64,000 nt of DNA from positions 12,937-76,936 of IMG/VR virus record IMGVR_UViG_3300020046_010243, one strand, 5' to 3'. Each line of letters starts with the position of its first letter. The stretch's first letter is position 1. The position numbers and the translations under genes were made by a program. The stretch comes from a virus (Duplodnaviria; Caudoviricetes). Positions 5,248 to 61,636 of this stretch are shown here, in pieces. The notes under the pieces are model-generated. The model did no database searches and was not told the origin of the DNA. It was given only the letters and a program-made list of their open reading frames with translations.

Positions 5248-5286
5248 CCGCGCTTTTTCTGACCCACCGAAAGGAGTCACCGCATC

Positions 5287-27647: not shown

Positions 27648-27992
27648 TTAAGGGGTATGACCTAACTGTCGCAGCCTGCGCTCTAGTTGGTCAACCCGCT
27701 CGCGCAGTTCGATGGCTACGCGCTCAGCAGCATAGCGCGCATTTCGCTCCTCATCCAGAGCCGCAGACATTTCTGAGACTGACTCAGCTAGTCGCTCGAC
27801 TTCGGTCCGCAACTGCTTTATCAGTTGGTCGTAGCCGCCGAGTACTTTGCCTTCGGCCTCATGTCCGCGTGCTGCGGCTTTGTCGTCGCGGCTATCCGCC
27901 TTGAATCGAAGCCAGACCTTCCAGAGAACTGAGCCGAGGAAAACGAGGCCGGCTAACCATCCTGCATTTTCGTCAATCTGCGGGAGATCCAT
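27648..27992 (-). CDS. single-TM plus coiled-coil lysis-region protein (holin-like)
   Basis: GWLAGLVFLGSVLWKVW then heptads; upstream of endolysin. Confidence 0.7.
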   Translation of the reverse strand: MDLPQIDENAGWLAGLVFLGSVLWKVWLRFKADSRDDKAAARGHEAEGKVLGGYDQLIKQLRTEVERLAESVSEMSAALDEERNARYAAERVAIELRERVDQLERRLRQLGHTP

Positions 27993-28431
27993 AGCGCCGT
28001 TTCTTCGGGTTGGAGATGAAGGCGAACATCGCGAGTGCGGTGATTACAGTAACTCCGGCAAACTGTCCCGGGCGCAAAACGGTCATGCCCGAGGAGATAG
28101 CGAACATCAAGCTTGTCCAAGTATAAAGCCAAACGAGAAGAAAAACTCCATAGACTCCCGCACCGAGTATCAGCGGAACCGCGCGAAAAAGAAGCCGCAG
28201 AAAAGCGCAGATGGCGAGCAGTAGCAGAGAGGCAGCGAGAATATCCTCGCCTCGAGCGGTGAAGAAAAACGAAGACCCAGGCCAGCGCTCGAGTGCGCTC
28301 TCCTTCCAGAGCACGACGCCCGCCCAAAGCCCGGTTGCGATCGTCACGCAGATTTTTGCCAGCACCTGACCCGAGTACTGGTAAGGATTGTCGAGCAACG
28401 ACGCTACCATTTCGCAGGTTCTACATTTCAT
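27973..28431 (-). CDS. four-TM membrane protein (holin-like candidate)
   Basis: Four hydrophobic segments, basic C-terminus; start uncertain. Confidence 0.65.
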   Translation of the reverse strand: MKCRTCEMVASLLDNPYQYSGQVLAKICVTIATGLWAGVVLWKESALERWPGSSFFFTARGEDILAASLLLLAICAFLRLLFRAVPLILGAGVYGVFLLVWLYTWTSLMFAISSGMTVLRPGQFAGVTVITALAMFAFISNPKKRRYGSPAD

Positions 28432-28442
28432 ATGTGGGTATC

Positions 28443-29189
28443 TCAGAAATTCGGAAATGGTGCAGTGGGCACGGCATAGTTCGTCGGACCATACCGGCAC
28501 ACTCCCTTAGTGACCCGAAAATCATCAGCATAGCCAACCAACGCCTCACCGTATGCATCTTGCCCGCAATAGAGTTGGCCGGTGGCCCCCGTCAGTGCCC
28601 CGAAGTTCCATGAGCCGATATAGTTGCCGTCTACGTGCAGGTACCAGTTCCGGAGAGTAGAGGCTACGGCGGCACCTTCTTGACAAAAAGAAATAAAATG
28701 CCAAGTAGCTGCACTACAAACCCCGTTGGCGCTAGTTATCCTGTAGCTGGAATCAGCAAAAAGACTGACCTGCCCCAGTGAACGACATCGGACAATCGGC
28801 GACCCATCGTTCCATGCGAAGCAAACATTGGTGTCGCGCAGCGTATCGAACCAAAACCAGCCCTCAAGTGTATGCGCCAAGGTCCCAAAGCCGTAGTCAG
28901 CGATATTGGCAAGGTTCTGCGCACCGGAAGAAGTGTTCGGGGATCTAAGCGATGCGCCGCCCCACTTGCTTTGCGTGGTGGAGATGGTGGCGGAACCGAG
29001 AACCGTGAGCGTGTTGCCGCGGGGGCACGAGTTAGTTAAAGTCGTGGAGCCATTCGATCCGTCAAAGTGCGCCATCTGAACGACGGAGGAAAAGTTTGGG
29101 TCGCCCCCGCCGCCACCTCGGTACGGATCAATAGTGAAAAAGCCTCGCTGCTGACGGCGCAAAGGTCGCGTAATGATCCTGCGATCCAT
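28443..29189 (-). CDS. LamG/concanavalin-like tail fibre or receptor-binding protein
   Basis: HFDGSNGST, FGTLAHTLEGW, TWHFIS, LHVDG, YADDFRVTKGVCRY. Confidence 0.8.
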   Translation of the reverse strand: MDRRIITRPLRRQQRGFFTIDPYRGGGGGDPNFSSVVQMAHFDGSNGSTTLTNSCPRGNTLTVLGSATISTTQSKWGGASLRSPNTSSGAQNLANIADYGFGTLAHTLEGWFWFDTLRDTNVCFAWNDGSPIVRCRSLGQVSLFADSSYRITSANGVCSAATWHFISFCQEGAAVASTLRNWYLHVDGNYIGSWNFGALTGATGQLYCGQDAYGEALVGYADDFRVTKGVCRYGPTNYAVPTAPFPNF

Positions 29190-29191
29190 CG

Positions 29192-32100
29192 TCAGTATCC
29201 GATTAGACATACCACTAGCCCCTTTGCATTGCCGCCGACCGCATCGATGTCAACGGTGATCTCAGCATCATCGGCCAGCGACGCATCCGAAATTACCGCA
29301 GCGGTTGCGGCGGTAGTGCTGGTCAACTCGCCCCCGTCGATAGTGAGCTTAGTAGAGAGAATCGAACTGCCGCCTTCATTGATATCGACCGTGATACCTG
29401 AGACGGGACTGCCGGTGTCTGCTGTGGCGAGGGAGCAGCGCACCGCGGTCAGAGTCATCGCATGCGGCATACGGAAGACCGCCTTGCGGGTTCCCGGGGT
29501 CAGCGCAGTTGAAAGATCCGAGCAAGCGAACTGGATTACTTTCTTGATGCTCGGATTCGGGTAGCTACCTACGAGGTCTCCTCCCGCGCTCCCCGCTACC
29601 GCGAGCGACCACTCCCCGCACTCATTGAGGAAGTAGGTAGGGTCGCACCCAGGCGCATGCGGCGAAGGCACCAGACCAGGCGTCAGGACATTCGGGGAGC
29701 CGGTCGTGTTCTGTCCGTAGACCGGGAGATTTCCTGCAACGGTCTCGTAATAAGTCGTCGTCGCAATTCCGGTATTCGTGAACTCAATCGCGGATGCTGA
29801 AGAGAGCGCGGCGCCAAAGGTCACCGCCTTGTAGAGGAAAGGCTGGTTCAGTTCCGATTCAGGCGCATCGACGTTGACGAAGGGCACGAGGCAGAAGAGA
29901 TCGCCCGCACCATGCCCAGTCGTGCCCGTGCCGAAACGCCCGCGCAGGAAGCCTCTCAGCAGATATGTCTCCGGCCCGATCAGGATAGCATCTCGAAACT
30001 GCAGCAGTTCCCATTGAATGACCGCAGGTGAGCCGACATAGCCTCTACTGATCGCGCAAAGGTTCCCGCCGTTCAGCAGCGCTTCCTCGCTGATGCTTTG
30101 CAGCGAGCCAAGTCGGGACGAGACGATCAAACATATCTCGGATTCGTCGATGACATCGCTACCGCTATGCGATGGGAGCGCGCCCGAGACTACCGGTGAA
30201 CCCCCGGATGTCGTAGTCTGCCCGATTACTGTTGCAGAGGAAGTCGAGGCTACCGAGGAGTAGGTTGAGCCACCATCGATTGATTTGTATAGAGTCGCAC
30301 CCGTCCATGCGCCCGCTACTGACGCCGGGTACATCGCAGCATAGAACCCGAAGGGCGCATGCGACTGCGAAAGGATCGGGATATCGAGGAGGATCAGTCC
30401 AGTGGGCGCGAGGAGTCCTACGGGCGGTTGCTCAGCGAAACCGCCTCCGGTAGCGCCCGGTGCGCTTTGCGTGTAGAGGTCTGCGGCAGCAAGCACGCCG
30501 GTAAACTTCAGCACGCCGCCAGGGGCGAGGGATTTTGTCAGGATGCGAATTTCGCGCGACTGGATGAGCACGATGTCGCACGGCACGAGTCGGTCCCACT
30601 TGCGAGTGAGAGACCACTCGAAGGTTTCGCGCTCGACTACCGCCGATGCAAGGAGGGCCGAGACTTTTCGCGCGGCGTCTTGATCGGTGAGACCCACTGC
30701 TACTTCGATGGAGACATCCTGCTGCGATAGCGCGGACCGGCGCTCTTCGCGCTGCACTCCGGGTTGGTAGTCGGCCTCGATGTTGATGTAGGTCAGCGAG
30801 AGCGAGCGCGGGATCGTCTCTTCGCGCGCGCGAACGCAGAGCAGCGGATCCGGCGACTCGTCACCAAACTCTCTCGCGCAGAGGTCGGCATCGGGGATTG
30901 CAATCGCGGTACCTAGCCCGAGCTTTCGGAAGACTATCTGGTCATCGCATTCGACTGCACTGAAAAAGTAGATGGGGCGTAGCGATGCAATCGCATTGCG
31001 CACCGTCATGTTCGATGCGATAGCGAACCATGGGACCTCATCATTCTCGAGTTCGACTACATCATACTGGCTGGGAGAGCCCGCCAGAGAAGTCATGTTC
31101 GAGAGATCGGCTACGATGGTCGCGAGAGACTCGCCGGTGGGCGGCGGACGGAGCGAAATGATTCCATCATTGACGAGTACCAGCGGGGAATTTTCCAGCA
31201 ATGAGACGTCACCAATGTACCCGGCCCCACCGTGGCCAACCGCCCCGATATAGGTCGCGGTCAGATCATCGTTCAGGTAGAATGTGCCAAGTTGCTTGAA
31301 TCCGGTGTTGCCCATATCGCAGGCAAGAATCAGGTCACCCTCATCCGTCTCATAGACGGTGAATAGGAAGCCGTTGATGATGGCGCGCGCTGCGTTCTCT
31401 GCGCTCAGGTCCCAGACACGGCTCACCGTCAACCCCGGGGCGTCGAACTCAGTCAACTCTTCCGCGTGGCCATCCCAGAGGTACACCCGGTCAGGCGTGT
31501 TCGATGTAGCGATGACGAAATCCGACATGGAAGCGTTGCCGCCGCTCCCGTCCGCAAGCCCAAGATCATAGGTGGCGATATATGGGCAAATAAGGCACTG
31601 GCCTGACATCGCAATAACTCGATCCGGCGCATAGTGACTATGGATATTTGCATGACCATTGATCGTGCTGCCTGACAGGAAGTATGCATAATCGGCATAG
31701 TAAACAGCGGATTGACCTGCGACCGCATCACCGCTGCTGCCATTGCCGTTGTCGATGCCCTCTGCGCCGCCGTGCTCAAAGGTGCTGAGCACTGCGCCGT
31801 CGCTGACTCCAAGGAAGTTCTGCAACGGCATCGTGAATGTCGTGCTGATGTAGCGGACGCTGCGCTTGCTCTCATCCTCTACGCCATGGATGCTGAAGTG
31901 ACGCACCGTCAGGTCGGTGTAAGGCTTGCTGACGTCGTCATAGTCGGCAACCTGAACATCGCCCGCGACATACTGCACCGAGCGCAGCCGACCGGCGCTG
32001 TCGCCTATCGGCTCAAAAATGGAGACCCGCCAGGGGAACTCGCCGACTTCCGTGTATACCTCGAACTCATACTGCGGGATCCGGTTGCCGAAGTCAGTCA

Positions 32101-32632
32101 AGTATTGATCGGTGAAGACGGCATGCGCGAACCCATTGTATGCCGGGACATTCCCAACGCCATGAATCGCCTCAAAGGTCGGGTCCGGCTCCTGGTCATC
32201 CCCGCCCTTGTAGAGAACGAAGGGGCAATCCTTCCCGTCATCCTGCGACCAGATGAGTCGGCCGTCCGCCCAGAGTCGTCGCACCCCGCGGATCGGGCCA
32301 TGACAGAGAAGGATATCGAACGAGGCGCTGTACGTGTAGTTGCTGACCTCGGGACCGCCTTTGCCGCCGCTCGTCTCCTTATGCTCTTCCAGGTCCGTCT
32401 GGTCAATGACGTTGCCGGCCAGTCGTCCCGTACCCCAGACATAGGGAGTGATCCAACCGTAGGTCGAGCGCTGAAGTTTCAGGTCGCTTAGTCGGGGTCC
32501 TTCGACCTTGGGCGGATCGATAAGGTTGCCGACCAGCGTGCCCGCGAGCAGCCCGATCTGCGCGCCGATCGGACCGCCAATCGCATACCCGATACCCGCG
32601 CCGACAATCCCTAGAATCTGACCGGTAGACAC
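29192..32632 (-). CDS. central tail / tail-tip protein (GTA-like, Phage-tail_3)
   Basis: STYG..PYVWG..RLAGNVI, WADGRLIW, VPAYNG, FGNRIP; GTG start at 32632. Confidence 0.88.
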   Translation of the reverse strand: MSTGQILGIVGAGIGYAIGGPIGAQIGLLAGTLVGNLIDPPKVEGPRLSDLKLQRSTYGWITPYVWGTGRLAGNVIDQTDLEEHKETSGGKGGPEVSNYTYSASFDILLCHGPIRGVRRLWADGRLIWSQDDGKDCPFVLYKGGDDQEPDPTFEAIHGVGNVPAYNGFAHAVFTDQYLTDFGNRIPQYEFEVYTEVGEFPWRVSIFEPIGDSAGRLRSVQYVAGDVQVADYDDVSKPYTDLTVRHFSIHGVEDESKRSVRYISTTFTMPLQNFLGVSDGAVLSTFEHGGAEGIDNGNGSSGDAVAGQSAVYYADYAYFLSGSTINGHANIHSHYAPDRVIAMSGQCLICPYIATYDLGLADGSGGNASMSDFVIATSNTPDRVYLWDGHAEELTEFDAPGLTVSRVWDLSAENAARAIINGFLFTVYETDEGDLILACDMGNTGFKQLGTFYLNDDLTATYIGAVGHGGAGYIGDVSLLENSPLVLVNDGIISLRPPPTGESLATIVADLSNMTSLAGSPSQYDVVELENDEVPWFAIASNMTVRNAIASLRPIYFFSAVECDDQIVFRKLGLGTAIAIPDADLCAREFGDESPDPLLCVRAREETIPRSLSLTYINIEADYQPGVQREERRSALSQQDVSIEVAVGLTDQDAARKVSALLASAVVERETFEWSLTRKWDRLVPCDIVLIQSREIRILTKSLAPGGVLKFTGVLAAADLYTQSAPGATGGGFAEQPPVGLLAPTGLILLDIPILSQSHAPFGFYAAMYPASVAGAWTGATLYKSIDGGSTYSSVASTSSATVIGQTTTSGGSPVVSGALPSHSGSDVIDESEICLIVSSRLGSLQSISEEALLNGGNLCAISRGYVGSPAVIQWELLQFRDAILIGPETYLLRGFLRGRFGTGTTGHGAGDLFCLVPFVNVDAPESELNQPFLYKAVTFGAALSSASAIEFTNTGIATTTYYETVAGNLPVYGQNTTGSPNVLTPGLVPSPHAPGCDPTYFLNECGEWSLAVAGSAGGDLVGSYPNPSIKKVIQFACSDLSTALTPGTRKAVFRMPHAMTLTAVRCSLATADTGSPVSGITVDINEGGSSILSTKLTIDGGELTSTTAATAAVISDASLADDAEITVDIDAVGGNAKGLVVCLIGY

Positions 32633-33063
32633 TAAGCAACTCCCCTGAACCGATACGCTCGCAAAACCTTCGCTCCGGCGACAGCGATGCCATTCTCGGC
32701 CACGAACCCCACTGACTGGTAGGCATGAATGACGTAGCCGGGCTTGCTTATCATCGCAAAGTGCTGCGGGAAGCGACGAAACGCCATCACCAGCACATCG
32801 CTCTCGCGCGCGAGCGAGAGATCTATGCGGTCCATGAACCGCTCGCAGGAAGCATAGAGAAACTCCGGGCGCGGAAGGCGACCATACGAATGCATCGCAG
32901 GATCTGCGCGCCATTCGGCGGCTCCCGGTAGCCCTAGCGCCAATGCGCTCATCCCGAGCAATCCCAAGCAGTCGACGCCGAGCCCCTTTACTCGAGCCTG
33001 ATGCACCCAAGGCGTCCACATCCAGGTGCGAGCTTCCTCGATCAGGAGAGACCGGCTAGTCAT
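32632..33063 (-). CDS. NlpC/P60 tail-associated peptidase
   Basis: ARTW..TPWVHQARVKGLGVDCLGL, QHFAM, IHAY. Confidence 0.9.
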   Translation of the reverse strand: MTSRSLLIEEARTWMWTPWVHQARVKGLGVDCLGLLGMSALALGLPGAAEWRADPAMHSYGRLPRPEFLYASCERFMDRIDLSLARESDVLVMAFRRFPQHFAMISKPGYVIHAYQSVGFVAENGIAVAGAKVLRAYRFRGVA

Positions 33064-33919
33064 TGTGCCTGCCGATCTGCACCAGCGCATCGTTGCCGCG
33101 CAACCAAGGTTCCCCATTGAAGCGTCGACCGTTGCCGAATGTCTCGACGCAATCCTCGATGAAGCGGCCGCGGCAGCCGCGCATGATCGAGTAGGAGTCG
33201 CCGGTCACATCATACGGGACCGGGCTGAGAAGTTCAAGCTCCCCTACGGTATAGGTCTTGACCTCAAAGGAGAGGTTGACTGCATCGCCGCTGGTGAAAG
33301 TGATGGTGCCCCGGTCGAAGGTGCCTGCATCTTCGGTTCGATCATTCACCGTCAGGACGAAGCGATTCGTGCTGACCCCATCGACTACTCCGGTGAAAGT
33401 ATATACCGGCGACCCGGCACCCAAGACGACTCCGCACTTCTCATCACCGAGCACATTGCGGCACCCCGCCTGGGTGGGTTCGCCGATACTGGTGCTGTAG
33501 GCGTCCATCATGCCGATGAGTTCGGCGATGAACATCTGCCTGCCCGTGCGCACTTCACCGAGCCTGCCCGCGCGTAGCTTGTTCTTCCCGGCAGCCGGGT
33601 TCGCCCAACTCACCATGAACATTCGGAACTGCGCATAGTCCCACCGCCCCGCGCGCAGATCATCGGCGGTCAGGCCTGCCTGCGAGAGCAGCGCGTCGAC
33701 CTGCACGTCATCGGGACCCATATCGCCGCCGGTAGCAACGTCAGTCGGGGTGAAGCTCGACCCGGGTCGATACTCGAGCCCATCGACTGTCAGCATCTTG
33801 CGGTTGGTCGTGAAGCCATAGACGTTGCCGTCGCGGCGTTCGATGCGGATGCAGGTCGCGAGTCGCGCCGACGAACGCGACATTTCGGTTTGCAAAGCAA
33901 GCGGGATCACCTTGCTCAT
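33056..33919 (-). CDS. baseplate hub protein (DUF2163, GTA-like)
   Basis: IERRDG..YGFT, GRWDYA, GC...LGD..CGV, GCRGRF..C..FGN..RFNGEPW. Confidence 0.88.
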   Translation of the reverse strand: MSKVIPLALQTEMSRSSARLATCIRIERRDGNVYGFTTNRKMLTVDGLEYRPGSSFTPTDVATGGDMGPDDVQVDALLSQAGLTADDLRAGRWDYAQFRMFMVSWANPAAGKNKLRAGRLGEVRTGRQMFIAELIGMMDAYSTSIGEPTQAGCRNVLGDEKCGVVLGAGSPVYTFTGVVDGVSTNRFVLTVNDRTEDAGTFDRGTITFTSGDAVNLSFEVKTYTVGELELLSPVPYDVTGDSYSIMRGCRGRFIEDCVETFGNGRRFNGEPWLRGNDALVQIGRHND

Positions 33920-34491
33920 ACTTCTTCTCCAGTCACTTCGATGATTTCGATGTCGCGCCAGCCGACGATCAAGCCCTCGCGCCCTCGGTTGATGACCTGC
34001 GCTTTCATGGGGTCGTTGTTCAAGCGGCACCAGCAATCGAACTCGCCATACCAAGTCGTGCCGCTAGTCGCGATCCCGGTAGCATAGTCGAGCCCTACGG
34101 CGTTCGTGGTGATGGTCCCCTGCACCGGCTTGGTAATCACCCGATCGTAGGTGTAGGGGCCGTAGGTGTAGCGCTTGACCATTTGCTTGCCGACCGGGCT
34201 ACCTTCGCTATCAATGAAGAAGCCTTCCCCGGAGTAGCACTCGAAGTCGACCCAGTCCTTGAAGCGGAAGGTATTCGCCATGCCTGCGACGTTGCGGAAG
34301 AAGGAGAGCAGAGGCTGCCAGTCGCCGTATGCGCGCGCCTCATGACTCACCGTCCATTCGCCGCGCTCGAGTTCCCACTCTTGCGTGCGCGACTCGGCTC
34401 CGCTCGCTACGGTTGCAATGCTGGTCTTGAATCGGGGTCCGCCGACCGCACCGAAACTGACCTTCTCGGGGAACCGGATATCCAGATCCAT
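33916..34491 (-). CDS. distal tail protein (DUF2460, GTA-like)
   Basis: RFP..VSFGAVGGPRFKT.I...SGAESR, FRFKDWVDF. Confidence 0.88.
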   Translation of the reverse strand: MDLDIRFPEKVSFGAVGGPRFKTSIATVASGAESRTQEWELERGEWTVSHEARAYGDWQPLLSFFRNVAGMANTFRFKDWVDFECYSGEGFFIDSEGSPVGKQMVKRYTYGPYTYDRVITKPVQGTITTNAVGLDYATGIATSGTTWYGEFDCWCRLNNDPMKAQVINRGREGLIVGWRDIEIIEVTGEEV

Positions 34492-34492
34492 A

Positions 34493-36709
34493 TCAATCCT
34501 TCAGCGTTCGCATGACTACTCCGCGCAATGCGTTGCCCGCTTGCCGAGCCGAGCGAGTATCGGCACCCGGCAGCACGTTGGTGATGAATGTGTTGCCGCC
34601 GCTGCCCGCCATGCGCTGCGACATCTGCGCTGAGTAGACCTTCGCGCCGCGAGGCAGGTCGACAAGCTCCGGGCCATTCTCGCCCACCCAGGCTCGACCG
34701 CCGGGAGCGAAGGAAGTGCCTGAAGCGAAGCCGCCGAAGCCGCCCGGGACCGGGTCGACTACGCTGAGGTAACTCGTGCCCCCGCCGCCGAGGAATCCCA
34801 TCGCAAGCTTCGCCAGAACTCCGAAGAAATCAGGTCCCGCGGTCTGGTTGCCGCCGAAGATCATGTTCCCGATGTTCTGCGCAGCGACTCGGGTCGCCTG
34901 CTTCAGGATATCATCGACGAATGACTTGAAGGCATCCTTCGCGCTCTTGGTGCCTTCGATGAACTCGAGGAAGGAGTCTGCGAAGGCATTGGAGAAGGCG
35001 TTCTTGACCTCCTGCAACGCCTCGGCTTCCTTCTTCAACTGCTCAGCAAAGGCGAGGTCTCCGACCAACTGCTTGCGCTTTTCGAGCGCGGCGATCTGCT
35101 CGTTCAGGACTGCAACTTGCGCCTCGGTATTCTCAATGTTCGCGAGCGCGAACGCCTTGTCCTTTGCCTCGACGATGAGAGCGTCGATTTTCGCAAGGGT
35201 GAGCTTACGCACCGCCTCTTCGCCGCCCTTGACGAAAGCAATCTGCTCCTCGAGTTGCTTGTTGCTGTCGCGGATGCCTTGCGCAGTCTTCTGCTCAGCC
35301 TCAAGCTCCTTCGTGCGAGTCTTCGAGTTCTGCTCGCGGATGCGAGAGGCTTCCTCTTCGAGTTTCTTGCGATCGGCTTCGACCTTCTTGGCAATCTCGG
35401 CATCCTGAATGCGTACAGCGAGCAGTTCGATGGCGGCTTGTCGCTCAGCGGTGAGCCCGGTGAACTTCGCTTTCGATAGGTCGAGTTCGACTTGCTCGAG
35501 GACCGTGAGGTCTTGCATCTTTTCAAGTTGCTTCTCTAGCGACGCAATCAGTTTCTCTGCGTCGGTGATCTCGGCCTTCTTGTCGGGGCCTTCCTTGCCC
35601 GAGAAACTCAGTTGCTTGCCGGGCGGCTTGAAGTTGCGATCCTCGAGCGCAGCCTGATTGCGCAGCGTGCGCGCCTTGTCAAACTCGCGTTCGAGAGTAG
35701 CTGAGAAAAGCGGCTTCTCGAGGAGCCGCTTGATGTCGCTCTGGAACTCGCCGATGATCGCTCGCGCGCCCGAGAGGTTGCCGCTCATCGCCTCGTTGCG
35801 TGCAGCAAGCCCCGCAGCGATAGAGAGACCCACCGCCTGGAAGACTCGAACTACGCCATCCCCCGCATCGACGAGCTTCGCTAGAGCGAGCGCGCCCGTC
35901 TCGGCGAACTTGCGAATCTGTTCGCCGTCGAGGTTCTTCGCTTGCGTGCTGACTCCGATCAACTGCGCTACGAACTCCTTTGTCGCGGTAATGATAGAGG
36001 TGATAGTCGGGAGTGCTTCGGTCGCGAGCGCCTGGAGGTAGAGTTCCAGTTGCGCGCGAGTGCGCTTCTGAGCATCCGAGTAGGCATCTGCGCGTTCGAT
36101 TTGCTGCTGCGTCAGGATCACCTGGCGCCCACCTTCGGCGGCCAGTTCCTTCAGGAAGGGCAGCAGCGCTGCTCCGCTCTTCCCGAACAGCGCCATTGCG
36201 ACCGCGGTCTTCGATGCCCCGTCCTCGAATCCCGCGAGTGCCTTCGCAACCGTCTCCAGTTGCGTCGCAGGGTCGAGAGCCTTGAACTCCTTGATCGGAA
36301 GACCAAGCGCAGCGAGTGCGGCGCCCGCATCCTTGGTCTCATCTTCGGTGGTAACGAGGCCTTTGGTGAGCTTGTTCAATGCGCCCGCAAGCGTCGCGGT
36401 GTCCGCACCCGCAGTCTTGCCTGCGACTGCAAACGATGCGAGCGCCTCAGCATTCGCGCCGGTGATCTCCTCGAAGTCCTTGAAGTCGCCCGCTTGTCCG
36501 GCGAGGTTGTTGATCGCAGCGAAGGCGCCGATCGCCGCAGCACCCATCGCAGCAATCGCCCCCGCGGCTGCGGTAGCACCAGCCGCAATCGCTTGGTCGA
36601 GTTTCTTGGCGAACTTCTCAGCATCGCGCTCGGACTTCGTGAGCCCGGTAGTGAACTCGGCAGCATTCAACCCGAGCGATACGACCAGAGAACCGAGAGA
36701 GGTAGCCAT
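34493..36709 (-). CDS. tape measure protein
   Basis: MATSLGSLVVSLGLNAAEFT, long helical Ala-rich body, FASG...WVGENGPE. Confidence 0.92.
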   Translation of the reverse strand: MATSLGSLVVSLGLNAAEFTTGLTKSERDAEKFAKKLDQAIAAGATAAAGAIAAMGAAAIGAFAAINNLAGQAGDFKDFEEITGANAEALASFAVAGKTAGADTATLAGALNKLTKGLVTTEDETKDAGAALAALGLPIKEFKALDPATQLETVAKALAGFEDGASKTAVAMALFGKSGAALLPFLKELAAEGGRQVILTQQQIERADAYSDAQKRTRAQLELYLQALATEALPTITSIITATKEFVAQLIGVSTQAKNLDGEQIRKFAETGALALAKLVDAGDGVVRVFQAVGLSIAAGLAARNEAMSGNLSGARAIIGEFQSDIKRLLEKPLFSATLEREFDKARTLRNQAALEDRNFKPPGKQLSFSGKEGPDKKAEITDAEKLIASLEKQLEKMQDLTVLEQVELDLSKAKFTGLTAERQAAIELLAVRIQDAEIAKKVEADRKKLEEEASRIREQNSKTRTKELEAEQKTAQGIRDSNKQLEEQIAFVKGGEEAVRKLTLAKIDALIVEAKDKAFALANIENTEAQVAVLNEQIAALEKRKQLVGDLAFAEQLKKEAEALQEVKNAFSNAFADSFLEFIEGTKSAKDAFKSFVDDILKQATRVAAQNIGNMIFGGNQTAGPDFFGVLAKLAMGFLGGGGTSYLSVVDPVPGGFGGFASGTSFAPGGRAWVGENGPELVDLPRGAKVYSAQMSQRMAGSGGNTFITNVLPGADTRSARQAGNALRGVVMRTLKD

Positions 36710-36712
36710 GCG

Positions 36713-37084
36713 CTACACCGCCTTCGCTTTGCGCTTGCGCTTCAACCCGAGAACCCGCACATTCTTGCCGCCGATTCCCGCAAAAGCCTCCGCGGCGATC
36801 TTGCCGGATGCAACTGAATTGGTCGGGGCTTCGGGCTTCGGCATCAGGTCAACGAGGAAATCCTCGAGCGTGTAATCGGATGCGCCGCCCATTGCCTGAG
36901 CGACCACTAGGCAGACCAGAGCCAACTGCAAATGCGTGCGGCGAGAGGGGAGCCCGACGGTGCGCTGATACTTCTCCCACCGCGAGAACTCTCGGGACGA
37001 CATGCGCACCGAAAGCTCCCGCACCGTCATGCCCATCTCTAGCGCCAGATCGTGCAGGAGGATCTGGCGCTTCGTCAGTTTCCC
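36713..37084 (-). CDS. frameshifted extension of tail assembly chaperone (GT)
   Basis: -1 frame opens GKLTKRQILLHDLALEMGMTVREL..MSSREF..W. Confidence 0.8.
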   Translation of the reverse strand, partial: GKLTKRQILLHDLALEMGMTVRELSVRMSSREFSRWEKYQRTVGLPSRRTHLQLALVCLVVAQAMGGASDYTLEDFLVDLMPKPEAPTNSVASGKIAAEAFAGIGGKNVRVLGLKRKRKAKAV

Positions 37085-37386
37085 GGCGTATCCTCCGCGA
37101 TGGCTGCACTCAGCAACTTCCAGGGCTGCCGGGCGAGCAATGCGACATCTTCCGGGTCGTCGCAGTTGAAGAGCAAGACGCCTTCCGCATCGCAGAGAAC
37201 CCGCGCCGCTGCGCGCGCGATGCGGTGCTTGTTCTTCTTGTCGGCGGTATCTTCGGTCTGGTCTTCGATCTCCGAGACAGTGACATCGCGGATGTAGACC
37301 TCGCCCCACTTCGGGATGGTGCGCTTGCGCGGAGGCTCCGCGGCAGTCGCTCGCATCGCGGCGATCAGTTCATCGCGGGTCGTCAT
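37075..37386 (-). CDS. tail assembly chaperone (G)
   Basis: Between tube and TMP; ends PGN*. Confidence 0.85.
   Translation of the reverse strand: MTTRDELIAAMRATAAEPPRKRTIPKWGEVYIRDVTVSEIEDQTEDTADKKNKHRIARAAARVLCDAEGVLLFNCDDPEDVALLARQPWKLLSAAIAEDTPGN
37078..37084 (-). promoter_or_regulatory. programmed -1 frameshift slippery site G GGA AAC
   Basis: X XXY YYZ heptamer immediately before the TGA. Confidence 0.8.
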
Positions 37387-37387
37387 C

Positions 37388-38047
37388 TTACGCCTCGAAG
37401 ACGAAGACTTCGCCGGTGAGCTTGATCGAAGCCGAGGCCGTCCAGACCCCATTGACCGCGCCCTGGAAGGAGGTCGAGGTCACGGTGCCGATCATGATGA
37501 CGATGCCGCCGGTGCCCGGGAAGATGATCTTGAAGGCGACCTGGTCACCGCTGAGCTTCGCCGCGCGCAGCGCAGCCTGCACCGCCTCGTTGCCGGCCCA
37601 GTTGAAGTCGAGTTGCAGAGTGCCCGAATCGCTCAGGCCTTGTTCGAACTCCTTCGCGGTCGAGCAGATCGTGGTGACTTCGATCGTATCGGCGCCGGCA
37701 TCCTGTTGGTTCGCGCCGGTCAGTTCGCAGAAGGTCGTGAACGTGACGGGCGAGGCGGTCGCGAGCGGGCTACCGCCAGCGAAGGCAGTGCCCCCGGTCG
37801 TATCGCCGCCCGCGAGTTCGAATGTGCCCGACGCTTCGTTGTCGACCGGGTAGAGGTTGCCCTCCAAGCCGGTGGGGGTAACGAGGTCATTGATGCGGAC
37901 CACGTCGCCGGTGACGAAGCCGTGCGCGGTCGACGAGACGACCGGCGGTTCCGCCAGGGTGACGCCCGTGATGGTCTTCGCGACTCCGAAGCCCGTCTGG
38001 ACCTTGAACTGCGAACCATTGAATTTGTAGCGCTTGCCCGAAGACAT
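37388..38047 (-). CDS. major tail tube protein
   Basis: ITGVTLAEPPVV..AHG, DTIEVTTICSTAKEFEQGL.DSG, FKIIFP. Confidence 0.88.
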   Translation of the reverse strand: MSSGKRYKFNGSQFKVQTGFGVAKTITGVTLAEPPVVSSTAHGFVTGDVVRINDLVTPTGLEGNLYPVDNEASGTFELAGGDTTGGTAFAGGSPLATASPVTFTTFCELTGANQQDAGADTIEVTTICSTAKEFEQGLSDSGTLQLDFNWAGNEAVQAALRAAKLSGDQVAFKIIFPGTGGIVIMIGTVTSTSFQGAVNGVWTASASIKLTGEVFVFEA

Positions 38048-38092
38048 GATCTACTCCTTGCGTTGTTTGCGGGGTTTACAGGGGTTGCGGTA

Positions 38093-38476
38093 TTACGGTG
38101 AACCGGAGACGCTTGAAGGGCTGATGAAATACTCGAGCGTCACTCGGTAAGTCTTGGTCTGCTCATCGAACTCTTGTCCGCCACTTGGTTGACGAGTCGC
38201 CGGCAGCGAAAATCCTAGCATAGCGGCGATGACTTGGTCGCGCAAGGTGATGACCGCCCCATGCGTCAACGCAACCAGATCGAGTTGCACTGAACTATCA
38301 TCGGTGTCGACAGTCGTGCTGCCGCAGATATCGTTGGTATCGGAAGAGGTCAGCACCGTATAGCGAATCGCGGGCCAGCGCGGCAGTTCTCCGTCGGGCT
38401 GGATGAAGGTCAGCGGGTAGCACCGGTTGTTGACCAGAGGCCCCAAGGTAGTGAACAGAAGTCCTTCCAGCATCAC
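38093..38476 (-). CDS. tail terminator (DUF3168-like)
   Basis: Position; P.IRY, VQLDL, LRDQV. Confidence 0.8.
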   Translation of the reverse strand: MMLEGLLFTTLGPLVNNRCYPLTFIQPDGELPRWPAIRYTVLTSSDTNDICGSTTVDTDDSSVQLDLVALTHGAVITLRDQVIAAMLGFSLPATRQPSGGQEFDEQTKTYRVTLEYFISPSSVSGSP

Positions 38477-38919
38477 ACACCCGCCTTCTTGAGGAAGCGC
38501 TCGAGTTTCTTGGCCATCGCTTTGATCGCGTCGCCGATGTTTTTCGCAAGAGCCGGGCGCATGTAGGGCTGAGCGCTCATGTTGATCGTCCCGAACTCCA
38601 CGAGCCGCCCATACCGCGCGGCATAGCCATCCTTCTTCTTGCCGCGCACAGTCACGATATACTCAGCGGTCAGCGAAGTGCGGGAAATCTTCTTCGTGAT
38701 GATGTTCTTTTTCAGGTTCCCCGGCTGCACCAGGGTATCCTTCACAATGTGCGGCTTGTCGTAGTCGGGCGCCGCGGCGATGGCGGCTTTCTTTACGACG
38801 CCCGCAGCCGCAGAAGTCGCCTGCCATGCAGCCTTCGTCGACAGTTCCTTCTTCAAGCGCTCCATGCGCGCGCCTAAAGCCGCTAGGCCTTGGACTTCGA
38901 TGCGAGTGACTTGCGGCAT
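38473..38919 (-). CDS. HK97 gp10-like neck protein
   Basis: GNLKKNI, YGRLVEFGT..MSAQPYMRPAL. Confidence 0.92.
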   Translation of the reverse strand: MPQVTRIEVQGLAALGARMERLKKELSTKAAWQATSAAAGVVKKAAIAAAPDYDKPHIVKDTLVQPGNLKKNIITKKISRTSLTAEYIVTVRGKKKDGYAARYGRLVEFGTINMSAQPYMRPALAKNIGDAIKAMAKKLERFLKKAGV

Positions 38920-38921
38920 AG

Positions 38922-39272
38922 CTACCCCTCGTTCGTCCCTGACTTGCAGCGAAGCTCCAGCATGCCGCGCGAGAGTCCCGGTTCGATCGGACCCACGATA
39001 TTGTAGATGACCGGCGGCCGCCCATCCGCTTGGTGCACGATGCGCGACTTCGCACTCAGCGCGGCGAGCGCAGGTGCCCAGCGGACAGTGATCTTCGTAT
39101 CGACCTCAGAGAGCAACCCGCCGCCGATCTGCGACTCGCGGGCGCTCTGCGGCAGGATCTCAGCATAGACGGTTGCGAAAGTCTGCCAGGAAGTCTCGGG
39201 TGCGCCGGTGCTCGACTGCGCATCGGTCGCGGTCTGGATCAAGACGCGATGAGAGAGGCGCGCGATTCTCAT
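38922..39272 (-). CDS. head-closure / head-tail adaptor
   Basis: LSHRVLIQ..TGAP..SWQTFATVYAEI, ITVRW, IYNI. Confidence 0.9.
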   Translation of the reverse strand: MRIARLSHRVLIQTATDAQSSTGAPETSWQTFATVYAEILPQSARESQIGGGLLSEVDTKITVRWAPALAALSAKSRIVHQADGRPPVIYNIVGPIEPGLSRGMLELRCKSGTNEG

Positions 39273-39994
39273 GCGATCGGCATCCGGATGCGGTAACGCT
39301 CGACCAGCGCCTGGATCCCCAGGGGCAGACGACTCACCATGTTGCCCACATTGATCTCCTCCCGGTTCTCATAGAGAGCACCGAGCGTCAACTTCATCGC
39401 GGCGATCAGTGAGTATGGGATGATGTTGTCGAGCGGAGAAGCGCCCGGTGCATCGTAGCCGACGCTCATGCGGATGCGGATCGACCCTGGCTGGTCGCGC
39501 GAAGAGGGCCAGTCACTCGAACCATATGCAGGATAGAGCACGGGCACCTCGCAGGCATTGTCGAGGTAGAAGGCGCTCGGATCCATCACCGCATCATTCC
39601 CGTCGCTGTCTTTATAGGTCACGGAAATGATGCCATTGACCGGCGCGGTCATCAGCGAGATCCCGAAGTCGGGCATCCATCGCGACATGCCCGAGAAGCA
39701 GCGCCCCGAAAGCTCGACCGTCTGCGGAGCGAGCGCGAGTCCGCTCACGAACTCGATATATTCGCGCGAGGCAGGGATGAGCGCCTCGATCAGTTCCTGG
39801 TCGAGGTAGGTCGCAGGGCTGCCGTATGCATCGATGCGCAAGTGCTGCGCGGCTTGGTCGAGAGTGATCGGCTCGATGCTCGGCGGAGTGATGACTCGAA
39901 GCGACTTGCGGTCGCGCAGGTCGCGCTGCCATCCCGCGATGCAGGTGATGTAGCTGTTGGCGAGACTGCGCCCATAGTTCAGGTAGCTGGTCAT
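39269..39994 (-). CDS. head-tail connector (gp6-like)
   Basis: PPSIEPITLDQAAQHLRID, AMKLTLGALYENRE, LVERYRI. Confidence 0.9.
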   Translation of the reverse strand: MTSYLNYGRSLANSYITCIAGWQRDLRDRKSLRVITPPSIEPITLDQAAQHLRIDAYGSPATYLDQELIEALIPASREYIEFVSGLALAPQTVELSGRCFSGMSRWMPDFGISLMTAPVNGIISVTYKDSDGNDAVMDPSAFYLDNACEVPVLYPAYGSSDWPSSRDQPGSIRIRMSVGYDAPGASPLDNIIPYSLIAAMKLTLGALYENREEINVGNMVSRLPLGIQALVERYRIRMPIA

Positions 39995-40677
39995 CCGAGG
40001 CACTCCTTCTTCGCTTGCTCCCAGATGTAAGCATGTTCGCATCCGGGTTTGAGTTCGGGGGTGCCCAGCGTGTAGTGGGCGATGATCGGTCGTTCGGGCT
40101 TGGGCTGCATTCCGACGAGCCAGTTATACTCGCCGGGAAGCGCACCGATCTCATTGTCGGCCAGCCAGCGAAACGCATGCAGATCGCGACCGGGCCATTG
40201 GTTGAGCATCTGGAGATTCAAGCGACGATTGGCGGGATGGTCGCAGTTGAAGAGCATCACCGACGACCAAAGCTTGCGATGGTAGTTAGTCTGGATCTGG
40301 TTGTCCATCTTGAAGCCGCCGACTTGCCCGACCTCATGCTTCACCACGCAGACCGCATAGTCATCGCGCGCATACCGAAGCATGCTGCGCGGATCCTCAA
40401 GAAAGATCACGTCCCCGTCGACGAAGAGCGCCCACCCGCTATGCGCGAGCAGGAGCGTTGCAAAGCGGGCGATGGCGAAGCGAGTCGACTGCGGAGCTTC
40501 GCTGTTGAGATCGAAAGCCTGCCCGCCTCGCGTATCCATCGGGCGGTAAATGATGCCCGATGCGCGCAGTCGGTCTTCGTAAAGACCGTGCACCTCGCAA
40601 CCGAAGCGCAGCGCAGACGCGACCGCGAGGTTGAATGAGACCGCCTCGCGCTCCTCGTAACCGACAAAGACTCTCAT
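39991..40677 (-). CDS. GT-A glycosyltransferase (GT8-like)
   Basis: VFVGYE.RE, STRF..ARF, FVDGD (DxD), RKLWSSVMLFN, HYTLGTP. Confidence 0.88.
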   Translation of the reverse strand: MRVFVGYEEREAVSFNLAVASALRFGCEVHGLYEDRLRASGIIYRPMDTRGGQAFDLNSEAPQSTRFAIARFATLLLAHSGWALFVDGDVIFLEDPRSMLRYARDDYAVCVVKHEVGQVGGFKMDNQIQTNYHRKLWSSVMLFNCDHPANRRLNLQMLNQWPGRDLHAFRWLADNEIGALPGEYNWLVGMQPKPERPIIAHYTLGTPELKPGCEHAYIWEQAKKECLG

Positions 40678-40688
40678 GCCTGCTTACC

Positions 40689-41354
40689 TCACCCCGGGAC
40701 CATGACAAAGTCGCCTGACATCTTCTCGACGCATTCGTAGCCGAGCGACTGCAACCACTCGACTGCGCCCAACTCAGGTAAACCGAACTGCTGTGCGCGC
40801 CCTGGCTTTTGTTCGACGATGATAGTGGGCAAGTCTCGCGCTATTGTAGCCTCTCCTCCGCGCAATGCAAAGTATTCGTAGCCTTCGCAGTCGAGTTTGA
40901 TGAAGTCGACAGACTGCAGATTGAAGGTGTCGAGACGGCAGAGCGGGATATCGCCCTCGCCCCCTACTTTCGAGTCCCCTGACGAGGATGGGGCTGTCTC
41001 AATACGCACGCTGCCCTCGTGGTCGCCGAGCGCGCAGGCATGCAAGACCGCGCGCGAATAGCCGAGGTTGACCAGATCCGGTTCGATGACATTCTGCTGA
41101 AAGCAGTCGCGGTGCGCTGCGACAGGCTCGAATGCATGCACAGTCTTGAACTGCTTGACCAACTGCATCGACCAGAGACCGATATGACCCCCGACATCGA
41201 CAGCAGTGCGAAAGTCGCGACAGTGCCGCAAGGCGGCACGGAGTTTCTTGATCTGGTAGGTCCCCTTGCCGTCGACCCATTCTCCCGACTTATTCATCCA
41301 GTCGAGCAGGTGCACTTCGCTGTCCGGAAACCAGATCCCCTGGTGCTGCTTCAT
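40689..41354 (-). CDS. FkbM-family SAM-dependent methyltransferase
   Basis: VDVGGHIG, HAFEP, ALGD, FIKLDCEGYEY..LRGG, PTIIVE. Confidence 0.92.
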   Translation of the reverse strand: MKQHQGIWFPDSEVHLLDWMNKSGEWVDGKGTYQIKKLRAALRHCRDFRTAVDVGGHIGLWSMQLVKQFKTVHAFEPVAAHRDCFQQNVIEPDLVNLGYSRAVLHACALGDHEGSVRIETAPSSSGDSKVGGEGDIPLCRLDTFNLQSVDFIKLDCEGYEYFALRGGEATIARDLPTIIVEQKPGRAQQFGLPELGAVEWLQSLGYECVEKMSGDFVMVPG

Positions 41355-42085
41355 GAAAAGACCTCCTGGTGAAGTGCTGCGTGAACTTCGTCAACGGTGA
41401 TGGCGAGCATGGCGGCCTTACACCCTGCGCACGCCTGCCGGTTGCCGCACCATCCGGTAGCATGCCGAATGTTGCGCTGGTTCTGGTAGCCGGTGAACTC
41501 GGGCGAGATAAACTCGGACCAAAGCACGACCGAAGGAATCGAAAGCGCAGCCGCAGCATGGTGCAATGCGCCTTCGCCGCCGACGAACCCGATGCTAGAG
41601 GTCAGGATTGCAAGAGCTTCCCGGAAGGCGGTCTCCTTGAACTCGACACCGCGCAGTCGCTTCGACTCAAGCGAACCGACCTGAATATAGCGACCTGGGT
41701 CTCGGTCGACCAACTGCTGCCATCGCTCGAACGGCCATGCTTTGTTGCCCCCGACGACCTTGGTATTCGGTTCGATCAAGACCTTGCCCGCGAAGGGCGC
41801 AGCCTTCGCAAGCTCGTCCCGGTGCAGGTAGAGACTACCCGGTTCGATGTTCCAGTGCCTCCAGACCCACCGCTCGGCGGTCTTGCCCGAGATATATGGG
41901 CGCACCCCCGAGGCGTTGAGCAAGGTAGCAGCGCCTCGCGTCTCGCGGGTGATGATCGGGTTGTACTCGAAGACCGGTGACCATTGCGCGCGCCCGCGCA
42001 GATCCATCACCACGACTTGCTTCCCGGTAGCCTGGTGAAGTTGACGCACCTGCGCGGTCGCCATAATCCAGTCACCGAGACCCAT
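41351..42085 (-). CDS. GT9-like (heptosyltransferase-type) glycosyltransferase
   Basis: MGLGDWIMAT, KAWP..RWQQL, FVGGEGALHHAAAAL..PSVVLW, CM-type ending AITVDEV. Confidence 0.85.
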   Translation of the reverse strand: MGLGDWIMATAQVRQLHQATGKQVVVMDLRGRAQWSPVFEYNPIITRETRGAATLLNASGVRPYISGKTAERWVWRHWNIEPGSLYLHRDELAKAAPFAGKVLIEPNTKVVGGNKAWPFERWQQLVDRDPGRYIQVGSLESKRLRGVEFKETAFREALAILTSSIGFVGGEGALHHAAAALSIPSVVLWSEFISPEFTGYQNQRNIRHATGWCGNRQACAGCKAAMLAITVDEVHAALHQEVFS

Positions 42086-42680
42086 TCGCACCTCCTTTGC
42101 GCCGGTAGTACCAGACCACCTCGTCGAAGGGTCCGAGTTCCTTGCGCTCGACCACGAAACCCGCCTCCTCCATGACCGCCCCGATATCGAAGGGACGGTT
42201 GTTGGTTCGAGCATCGACGATGACATCGCGCCCGCTAGGCGAAAGCCGCATGACGCAGAGATCATCGCAGATCGAAGCGAAGTGACTCGCGGCGAAGATA
42301 GGATCCTGGAGCTTGTGCAAGAGAGCGAGGAGCAGCACGATATCGTAATGCTCTTGCGGGCGATACTGATCCGCATCCGCCTGGATGAAAGTGCAGTCAG
42401 AAAAGCCTCGCTCAGCGGCGAGGCGATTCCCGATCTTGATGTGCCCCGGCACGATCTCAGCGCCGAGGACCTTGCGCGCGCCCAACCGCGCAGCCTCGAG
42501 CGAGATCAGTCCTTCTGCGCAACCGATGTCGAGGATGCTCTTGCCTTTCACCTCAGCGAAGAGAGGCTCCAGCCCGCGCAGTTGTTGTTCGAGCGTTCGA
42601 TCCCCGGGTCGCTCAGGAAGATCGAACCAGCCTCGGGTTCGCATCCGCTCAGCCTTGCGCTCGCGCGCGCGATTAGCCAC
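42072..42680 (-). CDS. class I SAM-dependent methyltransferase
   Basis: SILDIGCAEG..SLEAARLGARKVLGAE, YDIVLLLALLH; start 42680 or 42644. Confidence 0.88.
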   Translation of the reverse strand: MANRARERKAERMRTRGWFDLPERPGDRTLEQQLRGLEPLFAEVKGKSILDIGCAEGLISLEAARLGARKVLGAEIVPGHIKIGNRLAAERGFSDCTFIQADADQYRPQEHYDIVLLLALLHKLQDPIFAASHFASICDDLCVMRLSPSGRDVIVDARTNNRPFDIGAVMEEAGFVVERKELGPFDEVVWYYRRKGGANGSR

Positions 42681-46751: not shown

Positions 46752-47234
46752 TCAGTCAAGCAACCCAGAGTGCAGTGCTGAAATGAGCAGGGCGATTATA
46801 TCCTGATCGTCTCGGAGAATGCGCGCGCGGTTAGAAGGCGGGTAGTAAAAATGATATCCCCCACCAGGCATCGGAGTGATGATCGGAGGTTCCGGCGGTT
46901 CGATAGGCGCACCGATACCCATGCCGAATCGAACGAAAAGCGAAGCCGACTGCACCGTCCCAAGCGTGATGTAGCTGCCGCTTTGCGTGGCCGCAGAAGG
47001 CGCAAGGCCGAGCATTGCGGCCTTGCTTGCGCTCTGTCCATAACCAAAGGTGATATAGCTGCCGCCTTGAGCTGTCGCGGAAGGCACAAGGCCGAGCATT
47101 GCGGCCTTGCTTGCGCTCTGCCCATAGCCAAAGGTGATATAGCTTCCGCCCTCCCCCGGGTCATCGACAAAAGCATGCCACCACGGGTTTGCGAACTCCG
47201 CGCTGTCGAACCAAGGTTGTTGAAACCAAACCAC
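46752..47234 (-). CDS. accessory virion protein with 28-aa tandem repeat
   Basis: GGSYITFGYGQSASKAAMLGL repeated about 2.5 times. Confidence 0.7.
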   Translation of the reverse strand: MVWFQQPWFDSAEFANPWWHAFVDDPGEGGSYITFGYGQSASKAAMLGLVPSATAQGGSYITFGYGQSASKAAMLGLAPSAATQSGSYITLGTVQSASLFVRFGMGIGAPIEPPEPPIITPMPGGGYHFYYPPSNRARILRDDQDIIALLISALHSGLLD

Positions 47235-47238
47235 ACCA

Positions 47239-49283: not shown

Positions 49284-49284
49284 G

Positions 49285-50396: not shown

Positions 50397-50398
50397 GC

Positions 50399-50833: not shown

Positions 50834-50856
50834 TTCAGAACTCCCCTAAGTTTTGA

Positions 50857-54059: not shown

Positions 54060-54060
54060 G

Positions 54061-54423: not shown

Positions 54424-54431
54424 TGCGACTC

Positions 54432-55016: not shown

Positions 55017-55027
55017 CTTCGGTCTCC

Positions 55028-57766: not shown

Positions 57767-57774
57767 GATGACCT

Positions 57775-61627: not shown

Positions 61628-61636
61628 GACGACCTC

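Follow-up and report, generated by a model that had tools for sequence, protein, structure and literature searches.

A conserved Gly-Ser-Pro tripeptide in phage neck and tail proteins as a candidate O-glycosylation tag

Why should the same three residues recur across the neck and tail proteins of one phage? The question arises in an uncultured tailed phage (Caudoviricetes), known only from metagenomes as IMG/VR virus record IMGVR_UViG_3300020046_010243. The stretch that we analysed (the window, 64,000 nucleotides) spans bases 12937-76936 of this 76.9-kb record, for which the completeness estimate is 94%. A sequence-only reading of the window had counted 11 copies of Gly-Ser-Pro (GSP) in seven neck and tail proteins, close to an operon of glycosyltransferase-like and methyltransferase genes (hereafter, the glycan island), and had proposed the tripeptide as the sequon of a phage O-glycosylation system. 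We found that the tag exists, is selected, sits in loop insertions of exterior proteins and travels with one gene of the island, which encodes a protein resembling the Maf glycosyltransferases. Comparisons with homologues suggest that GSP is a previously undescribed O-glycosylation tag on exposed neck and tail proteins, a reading to which we assign a probability of roughly 0.55.

An excess of GSP in neck and tail proteins

All 11 neck and tail copies of GSP lie in frame on the minus strand, at the coordinates and in the sequence contexts first given for them, and the host proteins are those that had been named. Frame, strand and position also hold for four further copies in proteins called accessory. 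The GSP sites of the window are the following:

39815-39823, minus strand: residue 74 of the head-tail adaptor (gene 39269-40042)
38096-38104, minus strand: last three residues of the tail terminator (gene 38093-38476)
37766-37774, minus strand: residue 92 of the tail tube protein (gene 37388-38047)
34195-34203, minus strand: residue 97 of the distal tail protein (gene 33916-34491)
33407-33415, minus strand: residue 214 of the tail hub/tail assembly protein (gene 33056-34054)
29405-31081, minus strand: five copies, starting at 31073, 30194, 30026, 29693 and 29405, in the C-terminal half of a central tail protein like gp15 of gene transfer agents (GTA; gene 29192-33019)
28797-28805, minus strand: a ConA/LamG-like distal tail protein (gene 28443-29210)
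27982-27990, minus strand: near the C-terminal end of gene 27973-28500, a copy that the sequence-only reading did not list
49981-49989, minus strand: an accessory protein (gene 49285-50142)
51598-51678, minus strand: two copies (51598 and 51670) in the N-terminal part of an accessory protein (gene 50857-51735)
54957-54965, minus strand: an accessory protein (gene 54432-55016)
5644-5652: a DUF669 protein, first described as a single-stranded DNA-binding protein (SSB)
13708-13716: the N-terminal part of a QueC-like open reading frame (ORF)

The neck and tail block has 11 GSP where its local composition predicts 1.27 (p 1.1e-7), an expectation that agrees with the earlier rough estimate of about one. 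GSP ranks first among the 2540 tripeptides present in the block. Under a first-order Markov model, which soaks up part of the GSP signal itself, the expectation rises to 2.58 (p 8e-5). The tape measure, portal and capsid proteins have no GSP, as had been reported, and neither do the inner neck proteins. The non-structural arm contains two in-frame copies versus ~2.2 expected. Only one had been noticed there: the "SSB" site is real, and the copy in the QueC-like ORF has to be added to it. A depletion of GSP in the non-structural proteins is therefore unsupported. We also note that a 479-aa minus-strand ORF (4384-5823) is spurious; the real genes lie on the plus strand and encode an AAA_24 protein (4423-5247) and the DUF669 protein (5287-5817).

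Such an excess could reflect chance, composition or a DNA-level artefact singled out in hindsight. Both the tripeptide and the region were indeed chosen post hoc, the excess weakens over the whole structural arm (16 observed versus 4.7 expected, rank 4), and the tail proteins of control phages have a baseline observed/expected ratio of ~1.5 to 3. Yet a tripeptide equally extreme appeared in only 3 of 2000 within-protein residue shuffles. Furthermore, all six Ser codons are in use at the GSP sites, as the sequence-only reading had observed, which places the constraint on protein rather than on DNA. Most six-frame occurrences of GSP are also out of frame and, together with the variety of Ser codons, this argues against a DNA motif. 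Separately, the out-of-frame runs of GSP on the plus strand (57887-58057 and 46492-46527) are the antisense of collagen-like G-x-y repeats and fall outside the finding.

Replication and selection in related phages

Scans with the capsid protein, the tube protein and a tube alignment recovered ~60 related contigs, four of which were extended to full length (G and L numbers below denote relatives). Lineages with a tube protein 55-75% identical to that of this phage share the ~10-fold excess of GSP in the homologous neck and tail proteins. It was found in eight further lineages, listed here with observed versus expected copies, followed by a locus with a mixed motif:

G001: 13 versus 1.29
L023/G007: 10 versus 0.80
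L020/G006: 12 versus 0.87
L214: 12 versus 0.72
L225: 11 versus 0.91
L024: 5 versus 0.43
L022: 3 versus 0.23
L217: 4 versus 0.29
L212: 4 GSP plus 4 GTP

By enrichment, GSP ranks first or second among tripeptides in each of the loci ranked (G001, L023, L020, L024 and L022). The restriction to neck and tail is also reproduced: GSP is missing from ~9,900 aa of G007 protein (head, accessory and non-structural), as it is from the head proteins of G001 and G005. This replication effectively refutes an origin by chance or artefact, which we consider very improbable.

Purifying selection on GSP is strong. This phage shares 46-54% identity in its neck and tail proteins with G001, L023 and L020, and GSP is kept at 8 of 10, 8 of 10 and 7 of 8 aligned sites, respectively. 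Other tripeptides are kept at 19%, 12% and 15% of sites in the same comparisons (Fisher 6e-5, 1e-6 and 1e-5). Conservation of ~80% versus 12-19% is a further argument against chance. The residues that flank GSP are free to vary; over 55 sites, Ala or Gly before the motif and Ser, Ala or Thr after it are the only clear preferences.

The alignments also reveal how the sites were acquired. The sequence-only reading had proposed comparing homologues with and without the island, and this comparison identified GSP as an insertion or C-terminal extension rather than an ancestral feature. In the adaptor, tube and distal tail proteins, the motif is part of a 3-5 residue insertion, and in the terminator it is a C-terminal extension. 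Most relatives that have no island are without these sites. For example, the adaptor site reads GSP in G001, L009, L033 and L217 and Asp-Ser-Pro (DSP) in L005, L026, L032 and L040. The adaptor loop is deleted in L006, L007, L010, L011, L041 and L042 and is shorter, with no Pro, in L034, L035 and L043. The C-terminal extension of the terminator is common to G001, L022, L023, L024, L039, L033 and L217 and is missing in L005, L006, L007, L019 and L026. A 3-residue insertion carries GSP in the distal tail protein; it is kept in G001, L023, L020, L024 and L039 and missing in L006, L007, L009 and L019. The hub site is kept in G001, L023, L020, L024, L009 and L032 and missing in L007, L019 and L026.

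The tube protein illustrates the pattern best. Its GSP sits in a loop insertion of 4-5 residues where an additional N-terminal beta domain (residues 22-103) ends. This domain precedes a core like that of lambda gpV; the match to gpV begins only at residue 100. This arrangement suggests that the tube site faces outward. The site reads GSP in G001, L022, L023, L020 and L217, GTP in L009 and L019 and NSP in L005, and the insertion is missing from over 20 further tube homologues. In the tube tree, the insertion marks one clade (support 90/96) with approximately one origin and a loss in L024. As a side observation, a profile of tube residues 22-103 searched against the PDB matched a domain of the ubiquitin-activating enzyme E1 (E 2e-5 to 1e-4).

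Sites in the central tail protein are more fluid. At least one of G001, L023 and L020 keeps four of the five copies, and the homologues of these relatives carry additional GSP of their own (7, 4 and 9, respectively), which indicates that the sites turn over while their density persists. The accessory protein encoded at 49285-50142 has homologues in G005 and G007 (70-75% identical) that read GTP in an otherwise identical context. Together with the tube GTP of L009 and L019, these are swaps of Ser for Thr at homologous sites. The remaining proteins offer little to compare. The ConA/LamG-like protein (28443-29210) has no alignable homologue in close relatives, and the accessory protein at 54432-55016 has no homologue among the related loci. 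Homologues of gene 27973-28500 in G001, G006 and G007 align up to a point short of GSP, and those of the accessory protein at 50857-51735 span only residues 150-218, away from its two copies.

GSP could instead be a lineage-specific structural or docking element, such as a tight turn that stabilises exterior loops, or a contact for an accessory or decoration protein (for example, the phage's own lectin-fold ConA/LamG-like proteins). In that case, the substrates of the island would lie elsewhere, for example in collagen-like head fibres, the glycans of the host envelope or DNA. The tag is confined to one tail clade with few origins, as such an element might be. Some GSP are plainly structural, since the island-free L006 and L007 share one at tube residue 21. 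A purely structural turn, however, is not expected as an insertion in seven unrelated folds and again in a free C-terminal tail. Nor would it predict the gain and loss of sites in the central tail protein at a constant count or the exchange of Ser and Thr in a motif that is otherwise exact. We consider a structural or docking role unlikely, although less so than chance.

The glycan island and the gene that travels with the tag

The glycan island (39991-45064) is a genuine glycan-building cassette, a conclusion that follows from the glycosyltransferase-like folds and families of its products, its methyltransferases and the sugar-modifying genes present in the G001 counterpart. Fold or family searches bear out the earlier count of five glycosyltransferase-like genes and two methyltransferases. 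The genes and the basis for each assignment are as follows:

44240-45064, minus strand: Maf/GT42-like glycosyltransferase, 274 aa (fold model)
43455-44243, minus strand: KpsC/WbbB-like glycosyltransferase, paralogue A (paralogy with 42673-43458)
42673-43458, minus strand: KpsC/WbbB-like glycosyltransferase, paralogue B (fold model)
42072-42827, minus strand: class I S-adenosylmethionine (SAM) methyltransferase (Methyltransf_25, 1.7e-11), with a start probably near 42680
41351-42085, minus strand: GT9-like glycosyltransferase, ~244 aa (PF01075)
40689-41354, minus strand: FkbM-family methyltransferase (PF05050, 8e-15; TIGR01444, 4.6e-19)
39991-40677, minus strand: GT8-like protein (ESM Atlas structure match)

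Predicted structures support the Maf-like, KpsC-like and GT8-like folds. The AlphaFold2 model of the Maf-like protein (mean confidence, pLDDT, 87.7) has as its top Foldseek match 5mu5, the Maf protein of Magnetospirillum (E 1.4e-4, probability 1.00, query template modelling (TM) score 0.46). The next folds in the PDB are Cst-II, Cst-I and MptE HPPK, and the probability is 0.99-1.0 for Maf, Cst-II and Cst-I. The protein also matches phrog_4603, annotated "sialyltransferase", at 1.8e-36; its score against PF01973 (MptE-like) is 24.9 bits, below the gathering cut-off of 34.6. Relatives have shorter versions (187-252 aa versus 274 aa), and some versions carry a 68-residue N-terminal extension. Paralogue B (pLDDT 86.5) is modelled with a fold closest in the PDB to the retaining beta-Kdo (3-deoxy-D-manno-oct-2-ulosonic acid) transferases KpsC, WbbB and KrkA. 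Probabilities are 1.0 for KpsC and WbbB and 0.97-0.98 for KrkA, with query TM scores of 0.41-0.58 and 0.28, respectively. The two paralogues were 22% identical in one alignment. A profile search with them against PDB sequences returned noise only, and no Asp is invariant across nine aligned paralogues. The GT8-like protein has no Pfam match; its ESM Atlas model resembles viral clusters at a TM score of 0.90, and 57% of the members of one of these clusters carry PF01501 (Glyco_transf_8).

Sequence matches, by comparison, underlie the GT9-like and methyltransferase assignments. The GT9-like protein scores 22.2 bits against PF01075 (cut-off, 22.0), a borderline match that covers the C-lobe only, and its scores against NCBIfam equivalogues are far under the cut-offs. 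A profile search found the heptosyltransferases WaaF and WaaC at 5e-4. The protein has an N-terminal GD-x-IMA motif and an invariant C-terminal C-x5-C-x2-C. Its 341-aa ORF is over-extended: the first 97 residues align with no relative and mask the SAM methyltransferase gene at 42072-42827, which has homologues in G004, L212 and L214. Pairs of adjacent GT9-like and KpsC-like genes also occur widely in phage contigs of low GC content (36-39%) that show no excess of GSP (e.g., L058-L087). The G001 island (L002 6956-10017 and L016 752-1426) adds a two-domain sugar C-methyltransferase (Methyltransf_13/14), a DegT/EryC1 sugar aminotransferase and another gene with a weak resemblance to methyltransferases; G007 has ORFs of like size at the same place. 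Close relatives probably build different glycans.

Among the island genes, the Maf-like gene is the one that accompanies the tag. All six phages that are strongly or moderately enriched and whose upstream DNA is known carry it. In L217, it is the only island gene, located between the MuF-like and adaptor genes, and GSP is present in the adaptor loop, the terminator C-terminus and the tube loop of this locus. In L006, by comparison, the capsid gene abuts the adaptor gene, there is no island and the insertions are absent; L227, of the same lineage, has no GSP in 1688 aa that include the tail tip. When the observed/expected ratios of GSP, GTP and DSP are summed, 18 Maf-bearing lineages score higher than 7 Maf-free ones (Mann-Whitney p 0.003, a test that ignores relatedness). 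The tag is absent from Maf-free relatives at equal sequence distance, a pattern that a structural or docking element does not predict.

Sister lineages may use DSP as a second tag. L026, L032 and L040 have 4-5 DSP versus 0.5-0.7 expected, partly at the same sites; L040 has Maf-like genes only, and L026 and L032 have both a Maf-like and a KpsC-like gene. Pooled over ~70 further Maf-bearing viral loci, DSP is at 2.17x expectation downstream of the gene and at 0.80x upstream. We rejected the idea that the type of Maf paralogue sets the flavour of the motif: the Maf proteins of L217 (GSP) and L040 (DSP) are closely related.

Several observations weigh against a glycosylation tag written by the island. 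G004 has the whole island (40-58% identity) beside a non-homologous tail with 4 GSP in 3347 aa versus 1.6 expected (p 0.07), which would suit a structural or docking role for GSP, as does the presence of genes for collagen-like and ConA/LamG-like proteins next to the island. The GT9-like gene is found in 74 viral loci (36-72% GC), usually beside a KpsC-like gene and mostly without a GSP excess, and was rejected as a predictor of GSP; KpsC-like paralogue A is also present in L026 and L032, both without the excess. L247, L230 and L028 have a Maf-like gene and little or no excess, and the GSP, DSP and GTP flavours do not follow the two types of Maf paralogue. Conversely, the adaptor site of L037, L038 and L250 reads GSP with no island gene found 3.6 to 8 kb upstream, and L037 and L038 also have an x-S-P terminator end. 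The Maf-like protein, besides scoring under the Pfam cut-off, lacks the flagellin-binding domains of true Maf and, to our knowledge, its GT42 relatives act on glycans and not on proteins. The exposure of GSP on the virion surface is deduced from the pattern of insertions and deletions. Finally, the tube insertion arose approximately once, so the co-occurrence rests on few independent events, and the link between island and tag is correlative and phylogenetically shallow. What stands of the interpretation first proposed is the insertion of the motif, its selection, its restriction to exterior proteins and its co-occurrence with the Maf-like gene; G004, the GT9-like gene and L037, L038 and L250, with no island found upstream, do not fit it. 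Also in G004 (L127), tail-region proteins that are otherwise unrelated (47824-48198 and 39198-40487) share the run A-A-L-T-T-G-S-P.

The x-S-P sites of L037, L038 and L250, with no island found, would be easier to explain if GSP were modified by an enzyme from outside the island through proline-directed phosphorylation of Ser or Thr, prolyl hydroxylation or cytoplasmic glycosylation by the host (e.g., a flagellin pathway), and if the clade pattern reflected a shared host. Ser-Pro and Thr-Pro are classic kinase motifs, and the exchange of Ser and Thr suits any modification of a hydroxyl group. Opposing this, no kinase or hydroxylase family was matched among the window proteins searched, and the excess follows the Maf-like gene across relatives. 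We judge a modification of this kind improbable, slightly more so than a structural or docking role.

The island is part of the late operon, which runs on the minus strand (25272-63869) in this order:

59624-63445, minus strand: large terminase, protease-capsid fusion and portal
46752-58134, minus strand: 11-kb accessory block, followed by a MuF-like protein
39991-45064, minus strand: glycan island
downstream of the island, minus strand: head-tail adaptor, head closure, neck and terminator, then tube, chaperones and tape measure
tail tip, minus strand, GTA-like: distal tail protein, hub, 1275-aa gp15-like central protein and ConA/LamG-like protein

The accessory block, between the portal and MuF-like genes, encodes a 119-aa collagen-like protein, a 775-aa ConA/LamG-like protein, a 912-aa protein with a weak, below-threshold match to NHL repeats and several proteins without a family. 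It is absent from G001, and parts of it (47239-50833 and 57775-58134) have homologues in G005 and G007. The phage itself is distant from known ones. Neither a megablast of 20 kb of the window against a phage collection nor a protein-level scan with the central tail protein found a match, and the nearest cultured relatives are only ~30-40% identical at the protein level. The neighbours of the tail proteins are GTA-like tails of alphaproteobacterial, Pseudomonas and Xanthomonas phages. Those of the head proteins are phages of Pseudomonas, Salmonella and Rhizobium with PAJU2-like heads; for example, the capsid fusion shares 38-42% identity with its counterparts in phage PAJU2, Salmonella phage FSL SP-016 and Shiga toxin (Stx)-converting phages. 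As these protein-level neighbours infect Gram-negative bacteria, the host of this phage is likely Gram-negative as well.

A possible pathway and its known counterparts

If GSP is an O-glycosylation tag, it would serve as the acceptor, in a fuller form that comprises a small residue, Gly, Ser (sometimes Thr) and Pro. Because the cytoplasm is the site of folding and assembly for virion proteins of tailed phages, glycosylating them needs soluble transferases. Modification would take place in the host cytoplasm, before or during assembly, by the products of the island located between the head and neck genes. The likeliest reader of the tag would be the Maf/GT42-like enzyme of ~200 residues, which could transfer the first sugar, probably a CMP (cytidine monophosphate)-activated ulosonic acid such as Kdo, onto the serine of GSP. 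The KpsC-like, GT9-like and GT8-like enzymes could then lengthen the glycan by adding Kdo, heptose and hexose drawn from the lipopolysaccharide precursors of the host, and the two methyltransferases would cap it. Gram-negative hosts make CMP-Kdo and ADP-heptose for their lipopolysaccharide, which would explain why the phage needs no sugar-nucleotide genes of its own. The resulting sugar coat could shield the virion or alter its stickiness. We infer the attachment of sugar, the enzyme that reads the tag, the sugars used, the order of the enzymes and the role of the coat from the gene content and the pattern of sites. The most specific version of this pathway is possible but tentative. It holds that a minimal Maf/GT42-like enzyme of ~200 residues reads the sequence small residue-Gly-Ser/Thr-Pro and glycosylates the loops and termini of at least seven virion proteins with sugars from host CMP-Kdo and ADP-heptose, and that the DSP tag of sister lineages is related.

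Phage-encoded glycosylation of virions has been described in the mycobacteriophages Che8, Corndog and Myrna (Freeman 2023, as cited in PMC12619734 and PMC12363180). As in our proposal, phage glycosyltransferases are proposed to decorate the phage's own structural proteins, among them the tail tube, and C-terminal sites are used, like that of the terminator here. These two sources place the glycans at the C-terminal ends of subunits of the capsid and the tail tube in phages of Actinobacteria, and mention no short dispersed sequon (PMC12619734; PMC12363180). By contrast, the capsid of the phage studied here has no site, an exact tripeptide is present in loops of the seven neck and tail proteins and the host is probably Gram-negative. 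The Maf/GT42-, KpsC-, GT9- and GT8-like enzymes may also set the system apart.

Maf enzymes O-glycosylate exposed Ser and Thr residues of flagellin in the cytoplasm with CMP-ulosonic acids, and can transfer Kdo (PMC11339370). The phage protein is predicted to share the fold of their catalytic core, 5mu5 being its best match in the PDB. True Maf proteins have ~600 aa and flagellin-recognition domains; the phage protein consists of the core only (200-274 aa). Furthermore, no sequon is known for Maf enzymes (PMC11339370), whereas the phage enzyme would read a three-residue tag on many unrelated proteins.

A second parallel is with TibC and AAH (bacterial autotransporter heptosyltransferases, BAHT), cytoplasmic Ser O-glycosyltransferases that act on autotransporters and have a WaaC-like GT-B core and a Cys-bound metal finger for substrate recognition (PMC4358343). 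The phage GT9-like protein resembles them in its similarity to WaaC and WaaF and in its invariant C-terminal Cys cluster. It differs in size (~244 versus 406 aa for TibC) and in having three invariant Cys rather than the four of the TibC iron finger, and a search of its profile against the PDB, with E up to 1, found WaaF and WaaC only and not TibC. In addition, the GSP-rich L217 locus lacks its gene, which is frequent in phages that show no excess of GSP. Similarly, KpsC, KpsS and WbbB (GT99/GT107) are the best predicted fold match of the paralogues at 42673-44243; the known members extend capsule or O-antigen glycolipids, and the phage ones sit in a morphogenesis operon.

Short linear motifs that mark an acceptor residue are familiar from the bacterial oligosaccharyltransferases, which have defined sequons (PglB, D/E-x-N-x-S/T; PglL, WPAAASAP; PMC11339370). 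Those enzymes are periplasmic and use lipid-linked glycans, whereas the phage tag would need a soluble transferase. In the papers covered by our literature search, neither a GSP sequon nor any dispersed tripeptide sequon was described, and no Maf-like enzyme was reported to act on virions.

So far, only a few mycobacteriophages have been shown to glycosylate their virions with enzymes of their own. A Maf-like reader of ~200 residues, if true, would provide the first defined sequon for a soluble bacterial-type O-glycosyltransferase. The lack of a known sequon limits the use of Maf-type O-glycosyltransferases in glycoengineering; a three-residue tag and a soluble 200-residue enzyme would be a portable means to place ulosonic-acid glycans on chosen proteins in E. 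coli. On this reading, GSP would also be one of several tripeptide glyco-tags evolved independently by different phage groups, and phages of Gram-negative hosts would build sugar coats for their tails from lipopolysaccharide precursors. Such coats would matter for the stability and adsorption of phages, for how host defences and antibodies recognise them and for the design of therapeutic phages.

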